Origin: Saccostrea echinata
Lineage: Eukaryota
DNA length: 64,000 nt
Assembly: GCF_033153115.1 (NCBI RefSeq)
Contig: NW_026889764.1
Span: 9,610,001-9,674,000, forward strand
Direction of reading: 5' to 3'
Made by a program: the position numbers and the translations under genes. Of the stretch, positions 15,428 to 62,242 are shown in pieces. Position 1 is the stretch's first letter, and each line of letters starts with the position of its first letter. The notes under the pieces are model-generated. The model was not told the origin of the DNA, did not search any database, and saw only the letters and a list, made by a program, of their open reading frames with translations.

Positions 15428-15904
15428 CTCTCTTTTTGTCAAGGTTTTGTCCTGTTCCTTGTGCCTTTGTCGCCAATGATTTGCTCTTTTGAAAGGTAAG
15501 ATTATGTACCGTTTTTTTTTTTGAAAGATATTAGATTTTCATTTGAAGAAAAAATGTTATGCTAACTTTGAAAGTGTTATTAATTCGATTGTGTCAGTGT
15601 TGATGTTACAATGCAAGGAATTAAGGTATATCATAAATCATACATTCTGCATAAAGTCAGCATTTCCTTATAGAAAGAAAGTATATGTTAGGAGTAGTTT
15701 TTTTTCATTGATAATGAGCAAATCTAATAGATTGGCTAACAATCTGAAACAAGCTCCTGCTAAATATGCATGCAACAGTTATGGCCATTGTAATACAAAG
15801 GTCCTCACGTACTCCAGCTCCGAAATTTAATTGTTTTTTTTTTGTTTTTGTTTTTTTTATTATATGCAACCTCGTTACACGAAAATTCTTTTTTTAATAT
15901 TCTC

Positions 15905-15938
<34 letters not shown>

Positions 15939-18900
15939 AAAAGATAATAAACAAACACGTTCGTATATCTTTTAATTTTATTTTTCAGAAAAGTTTGTCT
16001 AGAAACGGTATTGAAGTTTGGGTTAAGTGATGTTGCTTGCAAGTTCAAAAAAAGTTATTTGGAGGCGAGTTTCCAGGGTATTGCTTTAAATTTTTAGGTA
16101 TTGTAATGGATGTATGATGAATTGAATAAAGAAATCGTGTCCTATGACGATGAAAGACAACTGTAATACAAATGGACCCTCTAATACCAAACGTTTTGCC
16201 CTTATTCAAGCCCTGTTTTTCTTTTAGAGCTACCTTTTGGAAGATTCCCTTGCAAAGAACAGTGTGCATTAAAAGTGGACTTGAATGACAAAAAGAGTGT
16301 TTTTAAAGTGAAGAACGTACACATTTTATTCAATAGGGATACATTAGAAACTCATCAGTGCCAATCTACACATGGAGTACATGGAGTTAATATTAAAGTG
16401 CATTGTTCCTCAAAAGACCTTAAAAGTATTTTATCATTTAGCAAGAAAAATTTTGGGTACCGTTTTCATAAGAAATTACGACTAAGACCAAAATATAATT
16501 TTTCAAATAAGCTTTGATTTTACATTAATTTGAAAATGGTTTTAATCTGTTTAAAAAAAAAAAAAACCTAAGTAAGATATTTTATGCAAGAAATCATTCA
16601 TTTTGTAAGATTTCACAATCAACTAAACTTTTTGGTCTTAGTTTTAAGCTTTTTTGTAAAACTGGCTCCTGTTGTTTATTTATTAAGGTTTTTTTAGTCC
16701 TATATTTATACAAGTACTCAAAAGAATCTCAATCAGAGTAAATATATCACATGTTAAGTGGCTCAAAAACATTGCGTAGTTTTTGATTTTGATAATAAGT
16801 TCTTCTTTCCATTAAAAACATATTTATACATTCCAATATCTTTTTGATATTATTAATTGTGATACGGAATGTATATGGTTTTGGAGGTTTTTTTTTCTAA
16901 AAACAATTTGAAAATACTGTCTTGTATATCTTATATATCAAGGAATACCTTTGATATATTTATCTTAGAAGTAAAAAAAAAAAGCTTTTTCTCTTGTAAT
17001 ATAGCTTGTGTATTATTAAAAGAATCATGATTGAAAAATATGCAATTTGCCTAAATAAATGAATCAAAATAATAAGGTTTTCCCTCCCTATTTTCTGTCA
17101 TATACAAATACAGTGTACTTAAAAAATACTAATTCGTTTAGATTATTTTGGACATGTCTGCTCAAACAATTCTGACATTTTGAAGCTGAACACAACCTAC
17201 TCTAAATTAGGAGAAATGGGAACATGTGCATGTAAGGATGGATTTATCCTAGTTAACGGTAGTTGCAAAAAAGGTATGTTATAATGCATATGTGAAAGTA
17301 CCTTGAGTTATATGTTCAATTACAGGTAATCGTGGATGTAAAGTGAAATCTAATGATATTTCAACAAAAAATAGACATTTTCAATCTAACACAATTGACA
17401 TACTCATACTTCCCTACTTTTCTCCAAAAGATGGTTTGGTTCTTGGTGAAAGCTGTTTTGTCGATAGACAGTGCTCTGGTTCAGCAAATTCCAGAAATTG
17501 TTCGAAGAATAAATGTGATTGCCAGTCAGGGTATTATAATAAAAGTTCACAATGTTATCCAAGTAAGTGGATTTTACATGCTATGAACAGTATTTATATA
17601 CGAATAACTATTGAGAAGGAATATGCTCTAAAAAGCTGGCGTTTAAAATAAAAGATCCATAGTTTGTTACATTAACTTAAAAGGTATTATACGCATGAGG
17701 AAATCTATAGCTTGTGATAGTCTTATTGAATATAAAGAAAGGAGCTGATATGATGATTTGTAATGAAATCTCATAAGTAGCTTAATCAAAATTCACTCAC
17801 ATATGCAATATTTCATTATTATTTTTTTTTTTATTTTTCACTAATCGTTGATATTATAAATAACCGTAAAGCATGAATAGATTTCAATATTAAACACATA
17901 CGTCGAAATTTGAATTTGTGGTGATATAAAAACTCACAGAATTAAAAATTCAAGTTCATGATAATATAAATTGGTCAGCCTTTATTTGTTAGATATCATT
18001 TCATAACAAACATTTCCCCTGTTCCTTAGAGAATTTTTACACATAGTAACATATCATTACAAACATTTCCCCTGCTCGTTAGGGAATTTTTACACATAGT
18101 AAATCGAGGTGAATCGTATCATCTGTGGTAATTTGGGAAACTTTTTTTTATTCTTGTACCTTTTTATGTAATATATGTTAGAAATAGTTAATTCCTCACT
18201 ATCATTGGAAGGAGCAAATTGTGAAAGACAATGCTCTTTATGTGACTAATATATGATCTTTTAGCTCAAGTGACGTTTTCTGATCAAAAAATTTGTCCGC
18301 TGTCTATCGTCATTGTCGTTGTGGGCACAGAATATTCATGAGAATATTACGATAGAGATGAGAGACGGAGATGATTACGGAATAGCAGCAAGTTTTGAGA
18401 GTTTTTCTTTTCAGATCTTGTAAAACAATTCTTTCTTAACTCTTTAGTACCAAAAACAGATATCCATCCAGCAAGGCACGCAAGTTTGTTCGGTCGAAGT
18501 CGAGTAAGTTGTTGAAAATCAAGTGCTGGACCTAACCACACCCCTTTCAAATATAGTAAATAATATTTGAAAAAAAATCAGCACGCCCTAAATTTCAATG
18601 AATCTGGTAAATAGGAAGTTTACATATATTTTTATCTCATAAAAAATCAGCTACAGACTAGTGCAAAAATGCCCGAATCGGGAAAAGAGATTCAAGACTT
18701 ATTTTGCGTCAGCCATGTTTTGGCGTGAACCTCAACTGAAATACTGTTTCGACACCTGAAGTGATCCTCAGATAGTTCAAAAAGGAAGGTTCACTTTATC
18801 CAAAAAATGGTACTGTCCATAAACCAAGTAATTGACCAAATCCTATTTCAAACCATCAATATAAAGTGCAGACTTTTTGCTTTCATTTCCTATAAAAAAA

Positions 18901-59640: not shown

Positions 59641-61282
59641 TATATATATCTTTAAAAGTGCTAAAAAGTATTTAAAAATTGTTTCCTAAAAAAAGTCAAA
59701 AAATCGTTAGTACATGTTACCTCGAACAAAGGATTTTTGCCAATACCAAATCACTTGGTACACTCCAAGCCCAAGCTTCATGATTTGGTGACTATGCTAT
59801 TGTGTGCATAATATATTATTAAAACTATCATTATCGATGATAGGATATAATCATGAGCACGGGTTCAAGGTCACTAAACAATGAATGTTTGGCCCGAGGT
59901 GTTAAACTGTCACTAAAATTTACAGAATTAGTAAAACCAAAACGGGAAAAAGAAACTCACTCTCTCCTACTCTCTTTCTTTTTGACATTAAACACCACTT
60001 TCGCCAAAATTACAACACAAATCTAAGCAAGTTTAATTGGTTGAATATTTAGGATTTTATGCTGCGTAACTGATCTTCCTGTCAGAACGATGTATTTCCT
60101 AACTGATAGTGCAAAAAATTGGAGTTAACTCACTATCTTGTGTTCATCCCAATATGACACGGCGAGATTGTCAGAACATGTGAAATAAACATGGAAGTCC
60201 TACATTGCTGACATTCCTGTTAAGTTTTAAGCCGAGGCTACTCAAACATTTGCTCGTTTTTTATTATTTTGGTCGCGTTTTCTGTAAAATATTCTCTGCT
60301 TTTTTGGATCAATTTGAGAAATAGCACCAGGGAATCATTATTTGGATCTTAACCTACATCTATATTCCAAAACAAATCATCACTAATGTCCAAAAGAATC
60401 CTATTAGAAGCTTCTGACTTAAATCCAAAAGAAACTAAGACAATACTGTCTTCATACATTGATGAAGAGGTTTTGAATATGCAGGAATGAACCTAATTGT
60501 GTTTGAAAACTGTTCACTGTGGACCATCTTCTGACCTGCTACAGACAAGTACATGTATATATATCCCTGAGGGTATAATTATCACATCTGGGCCTGTACA
60601 AAATTGCATCTTTATTTAATCATCATTTTCTTGATACAATTAAAAGGAAACACGCTAGAGTTGTGATGAAATAGATAGAAACACAAAGAGTTTAATTTCT
60701 TTGTGTAAAACATGTACTAAGTATGTTGTTAAACTTTTCCCTCGATATTCGATTTGGTCCCTCGCTTCGCTCGGCACCAAATCTCATGGTACTCGGGAAA
60801 AGTTTACCACATATATATGTTGGATCGACCGCTGAGCGAGATATTTGACCGCTATCAATGACGTTTTTTACGTCACACTGTAGGCAGGAACAAACATGGA
60901 AAAAATGCAAACATGGAAGCCATGTATTTCTAAATGATAAGTAAAACGTGTAACTGTTTGGGTCCGAGAAAACACATTTTGCCCTCGAACTTAGTCAAAA
61001 AAAGTATAATAGTACAAGCAACAAATCCTAAAATTTGAAGTGTGTTTGTGACCTGTGAATTTATTAAGGTATAGATAAAATAGTCACTGCAGATTATAAA
61101 ACTTTGAGTAGTACATGTATATATGATGTTCTTCACACACACAGAGACAGACAGATTTATCTTGAGGTAAAGACTATCTTACACATGCACACACAGGCGG
61201 GTTTATCTTTAAAGTAAACAAAATCTAACACAATGAGCCAAGTACACAAAGTTAATTTAGGTAGTATATGGTTCAACATACT

Positions 61283-62242
61283 TCATTTTTCTTTAATCCA
61301 TGGACAGATCTTTCGAAGTTTTTTTCTTATTTTATGTTTTAAACTGATTCCCTTAAGTCTTAACTTTATTTCGTAAAATGTTCGCTGATTTCCACTATTT
61401 TGACCAATCTTTACTGTCTTCTTAACGGGATCAGAAAGAACTTTGAACTTTGCAGCTGGTGGGAAAAGGAACTCTCTTTCATCATAATATGAATACTGAC
61501 TAATACCTTTTGGTCTCCATTCACTAGCCTGTGAATTGTCAATTATTAAAAAAATATTTTTGTCAGTATTAGGCGCAAGAAATGTTTCCATCGCTACTTC
61601 TCGAAGCTCTGATGATGATGTGAACTGCGGCAGAACTATGCTTTCCCCTTTTTGGTAAGCTTTCAAAACAGTTGTCATATCTCCACTTATGTTGCCTATC
61701 CCTCGGTATGTCGTTTTTCCTGTTGTCATCAAATCTCCCCAGTACAACATTGTGGCAAACAGGGCGGTCGCGTAAGGTGCTAATGCTCTGTCTTTTGGAG
61801 ATAACGCTTTTGTTGTACAGTCATGTTGACCAAGTGCTCCCGATAGATCATTGTAAATTTCATCAGCTGTGTACAGTTGGATAAGACTGGATTCCAGTTG
61901 ATCACGTGATCGACGGAGGGTATTGTAAGATGTACGATACTGATTCCGAAGTGACTCTGCTATCGTCCATTTTGTATCATTTCTTTTCTTTTGTAAAAGC
62001 ATGAAAACACTTTGCAGGGATTCAAAAAAGCGACCTTCATATTTCTCAGTCCCATTTGACAAAACCTCTATTCCATAATTTATCATATCCATTCCGTTCT
62101 TCTCTATCATTTTCTGGCAATCAGCTTTCTCTACAAACGCCCTTTTGTGTCTTCGATGTATTTGTTGTGCATAATAATTGAATTTGGGATGCAAGGCTGT
62201 TACTGTACTGCAGTATGTCACAACGATGAACAAAAGATCCAT
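61283..62242 (-). CDS. Secreted mono-ADP-ribosyltransferase (ARTC / R-S-E clade), uninterrupted CDS, 319 aa
   Basis: Signal-like MDLLFIVVTYCSTVTA, RHKR furin site, LYT..IYNDL helix, TYRG (R), FTSSS (S), DEREFLFPP (ExE). Basic C-terminus and no GPI signal. Confidence 0.9.
   Translation of the reverse strand: MDLLFIVVTYCSTVTALHPKFNYYAQQIHRRHKRAFVEKADCQKMIEKNGMDMINYGIEVLSNGTEKYEGRFFESLQSVFMLLQKKRNDTKWTIAESLRNQYRTSYNTLRRSRDQLESSLIQLYTADEIYNDLSGALGQHDCTTKALSPKDRALAPYATALFATMLYWGDLMTTGKTTYRGIGNISGDMTTVLKAYQKGESIVLPQFTSSSELREVAMETFLAPNTDKNIFLIIDNSQASEWRPKGISQYSYYDEREFLFPPAAKFKVLSDPVKKTVKIGQNSGNQRTFYEIKLRLKGISLKHKIRKKLRKICPWIKEK

Follow-up and report, generated by a model that had tools for sequence, protein, structure and literature searches.

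Bacterial defence islands, including the cyclic-oligonucleotide-based antiphage signalling system (CBASS), are defined by sensor and effector families that co-occur at independent loci, co-oriented and co-transcribed. A first-pass annotation proposed a comparable co-regulated or co-inherited sensor-effector locus in the rock oyster Saccostrea echinata (genome size 923 Mb), at positions 15428..62242 of a 64,000-nt stretch of DNA (hereafter the window). This locus contains two receptors with tyrosine motifs, a cGAS-like receptor (cGLR), a GRDP-like gene, a papain-fold gene and an ADP-ribosyltransferase (ART), as listed below. The proposal is not supported: the combination is absent from all flanks of paralogous genes that were scanned, the genes alternate in orientation, and no named ortholog of the cGLR from another oyster is detected. 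The locus is best interpreted, with a probability of roughly 0.6, as a mosaic that consists of an old ART/papain-fold pair, locally duplicated receptors, and a cGLR and a Toll-like receptor (TLR) that landed independently, with no shared switch; the order of arrival and the independent regulation are what we infer from these features.

15428..25647, plus strand: receptor 1, 10 exons with AG/GT ends, 466 amino acids (aa); EB module, E 1.1e-6
39272..41826, plus strand: receptor 2, 6 exons found, 301 aa; tandem paralog of receptor 1
42749..44806, plus strand: cGLR, single exon, 685 aa; Pfam Mab-21_C and catalytic motif; start set by aligning the N-termini of its clade
42593..45037, plus strand: segment common to the cGLR gene and its twin on contig C54, 86% nucleotide identity
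45398..48060, minus strand: GRDP-like gene, 4 coding exons found, 680 aa; PF07173, E 4.6e-50
50835..50922, plus strand: papain-fold gene, first coding exon according to the database model; not a signal peptide
53650..54148, plus strand: papain-fold gene, main exon; Cys-rich permuted papain fold (PPPDE/PLAAT-like), candidate catalytic His and Cys, dibasic KR sites
61283..62242, minus strand: R-S-E ADP-ribosyltransferase, single exon, 319 aa; hydrophobic leader, RHKR site, E-x-E

Exon models and open reading frames (ORFs) indicate that all six predicted genes are real, with open frames. The gene set continues beyond 62242, with a TLR and a second ART at most 12 kb downstream, and the order of strands including these two genes is + + + - + - + -.

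The families involved are expanded in this genome, and the counts are all lower bounds: at least 20 of 25 candidates for ART, at least 31 of 45 for the papain-fold family, at least 14 of 16 for GRDP, at least 97 scored of 434 candidates for cGLR, and at least 150 of 290 for TIR. The flanks (50 kb) of 10 other ART sites, two of which are of an ankyrin-bearing type without a leader, and of 8 other papain-fold sites, with at least one site per cluster and the long clusters covered in part, were scanned with family hidden Markov models, a cGLR profile of 177 sequences, an ORF from a control window and a cGLR motif. None of the 10 ART flanks and none of the 8 papain-fold flanks contains a cGLR, a GRDP, a TLR or the other effector, and there is no sensor-effector pairing at the one flank of the cGLR twin (0/1). 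By simple arithmetic, 0/18 bounds the recurrence rate at less than about 15%. The control ORF comes from a randomly chosen window on contig C27 (L164:1949-3757, minus strand) and is a 603-aa single-exon cGLR-like frame with GS..EG, E-x-D and third-Asp motifs that has no match in Pfam or the PDB. Because the first cGLR profiles also missed this ORF, the flanks were rescanned with the broader profile and the motif, and the result stayed at 0/18; judging from its sequence, the C27 ORF suggests that uncounted divergent cGLRs may exist. Among the 204 listed cGLR positions, those nearest to seven other ART clusters are 84 kb to 31 Mb away. By coordinates only, no listed cGLR, ART or papain-fold gene lies within 700 kb of six other GRDP clusters, and nowhere else in the genome do listed ART and papain-fold clusters adjoin.

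A separate observation is that genes for nSTAND3-ankyrin, DZIP3-HEPN and TRIM proteins are present near some ART and papain-fold paralogs (L084, L127, L128, L152-L155).

Several observations weigh against the mosaic interpretation. Under uniform placement, a cGLR would be expected no more than 20 kb from this one effector pair with a probability of only 0.5-2%, and a TLR is there as well; the region therefore appears to be richer than average. None of 8 random 50-kb windows contains more than one immune-type family (49 of the 87 filtered ORFs were sent to Pfam). The cGLR motif caught 24 of 32 of the genome's own cGLRs, so that the flank scans, which can miss divergent or multi-exon genes, are imperfect. 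The cGLR and its twin are under purifying selection (dN/dS 0.17). The GRDP and papain-fold genes are arranged divergently, which could possibly allow a shared promoter, as far as the sequence indicates. Finally, the effector pair is linked in other oysters: the ART and papain-fold orthologs of S. cucullata (LOC134283482/LOC134283493) are on one 407,046-bp scaffold, with accessions 11 apart, and those of O. edulis (LOC125654099/LOC125654645) are both on an 88,744,346-bp contig, shared placement being deduced in both species from the equal size of each ortholog's contig. The gap between RefSeq accessions was rejected as a ruler of distance in O. edulis, given that two genes about 138 kb apart here differ by 244. 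The linkage in two further oysters implies that the pair is old, and ordinary gene order predicts the same. Conserved linkage in related species, the absence of which would have refuted the first-pass annotation, is thus found for the two effector genes; for the cGLR, no named ortholog from another oyster is among the 9 matches described below.

The tests of chance adjacency are divided. In contrast to the low figure for this pair, uniform placement gives a probability of 0.06-0.26 for at least one cGLR lying within 20 kb of any ART or papain-fold cluster, and one of the 8 random windows held a gene with a cGLR-like motif. A rival explanation, which is unlikely but deserves serious consideration, is that the locus is an immune hot spot, i.e., a region of fast turnover that tolerates or favours immune insertions, with loose co-induction through shared chromatin and no fixed sensor-effector pairing. 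Such a hot spot would be compatible with the presence of five expanded families in about 33 kb, each represented by one gene or a pair, with the Ig-domain and TRIM genes found 60-90 kb upstream, and with the nSTAND3-ankyrin, HEPN or TRIM genes at no fewer than 3 of the 18 other ART and papain-fold flanks. However, two of the 8 control windows also hold such genes (an NHL-repeat ORF and the cGLR-like ORF), and motifs similar to NF-kB sites (kB) and interferon-stimulated response elements (ISRE) are not enriched upstream of the locus genes, where 0-1 kB-like and 0-2 ISRE-like sites per 2 kb are near the control level of 0.1 and 0.43, in what is a weak test. Furthermore, in the accessible part of PMC12373286, which is also the source cited here for bacterial defence islands, the dispensable defence genes of lancelets are described as scattered randomly, in blocks of mostly one gene. 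The chance figures neither prove nor exclude a hot spot, because the list of families was chosen after the locus had been seen.

In a true defence island, the cGLR would sense nucleic acid, and STING and NF-kB/IRF would activate the two neighbouring effectors (ART and papain-fold protein), with selection and inheritance acting on the block as a unit. This explanation is improbable, even though none of the genes is disrupted, three oysters show linkage of the effector pair, the ART family profile has its best match among bacterial arginine ARTs (E 4.8e-9), and the predicted papain fold matches the type VI effector TseH (Z 6.3). The absence of the pairing from the 18 paralog flanks, the lack of a named cGLR ortholog in S. 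cucullata and O. edulis, both of which retain the effector pair, and an orientation that is not operon-like all argue against it; in addition, Pfam finds only ART and C97/LRAT domains, and no cyclic-nucleotide receptor domain, in the effectors, and no signal peptide is found for the papain-fold protein. Under the mosaic interpretation, each gene would act by its own route, and a link between sensor and effectors could only be transcriptional. In the cytosol, the cGLR would synthesize a cyclic dinucleotide that acts on STING. The ART would leave the cell, undergo cleavage at the RHKR site and ADP-ribosylate an arginine of a target that is either extracellular or microbial. The tyrosines of the receptors would serve to recruit SH2 proteins, and the papain-fold protein would be a thiol hydrolase acting on a separate route. 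Considering the known biology of cGLRs and STING, a cytosolic cGLR product would not be able to directly activate a secreted enzyme.

The annotation of this gene as a cGLR that retains its catalytic acidic residues is confirmed. The protein matches Pfam Mab-21_C (E 1.7e-14) and shows homology to MB21D2 (E 1e-16) and cGLR1 (E 1e-7) that encompasses the nucleotidyltransferase (NTase) core and the helix bundle, which are followed by a C-terminal helical region. The three catalytic acidic residues (D92, D94 and D200, the last of which aligns with the third Asp of the solved cGLR1) and T-G-S at positions 80-82 are all present. The Atlas predicted model (pTM 0.59) has a TM-score of about 0.5 to Mab-21 clusters. 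The active-site motif h[QT]GS X8-20 [DE]h[DE]h X50-90 h[DE]h, as given in the available part of PMC9980059, fails in its strict form, with R after D94, E after D200 and a spacing of 103; it likewise fails in all 32 tested cGLRs of the same genome and in 10 of the 11 rows of the clade. With an isoelectric point (pI) of 6.0 over its full length and of 7.9 over residues 1-380, the protein does not reach the value of >8.5 reported for nucleic-acid-activated cGLRs in the same source, which also reports bivalves with more than 200 cGLRs.

The cGLR appears to be a separate, dispersed copy without a named ortholog in other oysters, and it likely arrived later than the effector pair. Its twin on contig C54 is 86% identical over 42593-45037 only, is surrounded by unrelated genes and carries a frameshift near the 5' end; dS between the two copies is 0.39. 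Neither a target-site duplication nor a clear poly(A) tail was found at the ends of the cGLR segment, where the only candidate is an A-rich run after 45037, which is not decisive. Among 7,997 scored candidates (lengths 376-1199 aa), there are 9 matches: the protein itself, the C54 twin (86%), Actinia tenebrosa (41%), Mytilus (36%) and a Mytilus partial sequence, three other full-length proteins and one distant protein; none of the 9 is a named ortholog from another oyster species. A search of 1.84 billion representatives yields 4 at E <1e-90, followed by a fall to 1e-40; the representatives are 50% clusters, inside one of which a close ortholog could be hidden. That the nearest named full-length relatives outside the species come from a sea anemone and mussels could also indicate that an assembly join or contamination united unrelated genes. 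This is extremely unlikely, considering that the diverged twin is on another contig, that the GC content at third codon positions is host-like (0.39, compared with 0.32-0.41 in the neighbours), and that the effector linkage is common to other oysters.

In a 69-row FastTree tree, from which rows shorter than 330 aa and representatives longer than 900 aa were left out, the window cGLR belongs to an 11-row clade (SH 99) outside the oyster's own cGLR radiation. A 15-row IQ-TREE tree groups the mussels with Actinia-type proteins (100/99) rather than with the oyster, and a clade of bivalves is rejected by an approximately unbiased (AU) test on the same set (p 0.004). Since this hypothesis was formulated only once the first tree had been seen, and since the branch to the oyster is long, the conflict counts as a lead. 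Mussel and anemone cGLRs are 53-54% identical, compared with 36-40% for oyster and mussel, and an 8-residue signature of the clade occurs in only two rows, Actinia and Mytilus, of the 3,020-cGLR table in the part of PMC9980059 that was available. The conflict may stem from transfer, from an old paralogy followed by heavy loss, from accelerated evolution on the oyster side or from a record that is misassigned; of these, transfer across phyla within the clade can be suggested only tentatively. It is highly unlikely that the cGLR represents a lineage that moved horizontally among sea anemones, mussels and the rock oyster and, having come to lie beside an old toxin-like effector pair, now drives it, i.e., an island caught in assembly. 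The low-copy cGLR clade, being at odds with the species tree, nevertheless qualifies as a candidate case either of gene transfer across marine phyla or of extreme loss.

The prediction of a secreted ADP-ribosyltransferase is well supported. The Pfam ART score exceeds the cut-off (26.4 versus 22.3 bits), the N-terminus is hydrophobic and of the signal type, such that export is predicted, and the RHKR site is kept in orthologs. The protein contains the residues that define R-S-E enzymes, namely R180, S209 and S211 of the S-x-S motif, and E255-x-E257 with the catalytic Glu; R180, S209 and E257 are invariant in 13 of 13 rows. E-x-E is the arginine-specificity signature of ARTC enzymes. No vertebrate ecto-ART chain is present among the 10 PDB matches at E up to 1. 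The oyster family consists of about 20 members, most of which possess leader peptides. Unlike the clade of the window ART, several paralogs (L079, L083, L094, L104, L109) terminate in hydrophobic tails similar to GPI-anchor signals, and the first Glu of the E-x-E motif is missing from them. Tandem proteins in which an ankyrin-like N-terminus precedes an ART-like domain, without a leader (L064:8660-9838, L065:890-2167, L113-L114), represent a second ART type that is probably intracellular. One ART paralog, on contig C18, has Polinton-like ORFs (DNA polymerase-like, A32 ATPase and integrase-like) at a distance of about 16 kb (L097:1280-8546). Kinship between the ART and papain-fold families was considered and rejected (probability 0.1%).

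The papain-fold gene, initially described as encoding a secreted PPPDE-like peptidase, retains the fold assignment, and its secretion is not confirmed. H57 and C142 are invariant in 12 of 12 rows, in the His-before-Cys order, and the protein contains the motif NNCHHF. The predicted model (pLDDT 75), which shows a permuted papain fold with His and Cys, has its best match to DeSI/PPPDE (Z 7.8, which is middling; rmsd 2.5 over 99 aligned residues), and the matches below that of TseH include PLAAT4 (Z 5.7). The Pfam scores are below the cut-offs for both C97 (27.8 versus 29.2 bits) and LRAT (21.6 versus 24.3 bits), and a profile search retrieves PLAAT chains first, all matches being weak. The protein is a candidate peptidase or lipid enzyme, given that the C97 score is below the cut-off and the PLAAT lipid enzymes match about equally well. 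The N-terminus of the database model is not hydrophobic, and no signal exon is detected in the 9 kb upstream; for most of the 9 papain-fold paralogs scanned in the same way, a first exon could not be clearly recognized either.

The GRDP gene was correctly recognized among these genes: its 680-aa frame is open over 4 exons, and it is convergent with the cGLR gene, about 600 bp separating the two stop codons. We do not class it as an immune gene because the GRDP literature that was found consists of work on plant development and stress. The GRDP gene diverges from the papain-fold gene, whose modelled first exon lies within about 3 kb of it (48060-50922). Thus, of the claim that five of the six genes are immune-type, the identities of the genes largely hold and the neighbourhood is immune-rich, with the exception of the secretion of the papain-fold protein.

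ITIM and ITSM motifs (immunoreceptor tyrosine-based inhibitory and switch motifs) follow the consensus S/I/V/LxYxxI/V/L or TxYxxV/I and are cytoplasmic, behind a transmembrane (TM) helix. Both receptors of the locus have such a motif in the tail, as the first-pass annotation had stated, and both have a TM helix. Receptor 1 has no internal stop over 466 aa and consists of a Cys-rich head, three EB/EGF-like exons, a stalk, the TM helix, and a tail with NPTY, the ITSM TAYSSV and the ITIM SNYSHL (1 ITIM and 1 ITSM compared with shuffles, p 0.012). Receptor 2, with 301 aa and no stop, contains one EB-like exon, the TM helix and the ITIM ITYSNI, and lacks an ITSM; by number alone, its ITIM/ITSM motifs do not exceed shuffled sequences (p 0.23), but its four YxxL/I/V motifs do (p 0.007). 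The two receptors are 41% identical over the TM helix and tail and 34% over the head, and a genome search shows that they are each other's only close paralogs. A start exon was looked for in both receptors and located in neither.

The remaining features of the locus and its downstream neighbourhood are the following.

26001..39000, no strand: repeat-rich spacer between the receptors; 60% matches repeats in the other loci examined; GIY-YIG and reverse-transcriptase remnants
54633..59651, minus strand: retroelement reverse-transcriptase remnants (Pfam) in the interval between the papain-fold gene and the ART
L037:3289-5589, within ~67.3-73.9 kb of window numbering, plus strand: single-exon LRR-TM-TIR receptor (TLR), between the ART and the second ART
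L037:8958-9917, within ~67.3-73.9 kb of window numbering, minus strand: second ART, 70% identical to the window ART

The closest paralogs of the TLR (64-71% in TIR) are on other contigs. The upstream genes 60-90 kb from the window encode Ig-domain membrane proteins and a TRIM protein (L027:9212 onward, L028:5950-7965, L031:89-1009), and two DAN/cystine-knot genes are located 45-67 kb downstream of the window (L041:5305-5829, L043:7108-7623). Positions 1290-4369 of the window hold degraded ORF pieces without a Pfam match, which are similar in appearance to a tyrosine-recombinase retrotransposon.

In the literature reached by aimed searches, with most subscription papers outside the coverage, there is no animal sensor-effector island of this kind, no description of a secreted oyster ART family, and no report of this cGLR clade as transferred. 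If animals built islands in the bacterial style, gene neighbourhood could reveal unknown immune effectors; the present locus gives no such support and can serve as a worked negative test, in which a combination of genes does not recur at paralogous loci.

The resemblance to bacterial defence islands and CBASS consists in the location of a cGAS/DncV-like enzyme near enzymes whose folds serve bacteria as effectors. Unlike CBASS, the oyster locus lacks recurrence at paralogous loci, co-orientation and a cyclic-nucleotide receptor in the effectors. Moreover, secretion is predicted for at least the ART, which would separate it from the cytosolic signal instead of placing both in one compartment. 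The cGLR has the same NTase triad and helix bundle as the animal cGLRs described in the accessible part of PMC9980059, and the Actinia and Mytilus members of its clade are included in the curated table of that paper; it differs in a pI below that of the nucleic-acid-activated cGLRs and in its position outside the host's own radiation.

The papain-fold protein shares the His-Cys order, NNCHHF and the fold with PPPDE/DeSI (C97) and the PLAAT/HRASLS group of permuted NlpC/P60 proteins, and is distinguished from them by extra conserved cysteines, dibasic sites and sub-cut-off Pfam scores. The window ART contains the same R, S-x-S, E-x-E and leader as the R-S-E (ARTC) mono-ADP-ribosyltransferases (Vis, Tre1 and HopU1, and the vertebrate ecto-ARTs), with which some oyster paralogs also share hydrophobic, anchor-like tails. 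In contrast to these enzymes, it has no delivery or receptor-binding domain, possesses a dibasic pro-segment and belongs to the oyster family of about 20 members, which is worth keeping as a side result. Similarly, the clam DNA ADP-ribosyltransferase CARP-1 (PMC11209040, as far as the accessible text describes it) is a bivalve ART without a receptor-binding domain; CARP-1 is a guanine-modifying protein of 182 aa, whereas the window ART has 319 aa and the arginine-type signature E-x-E.

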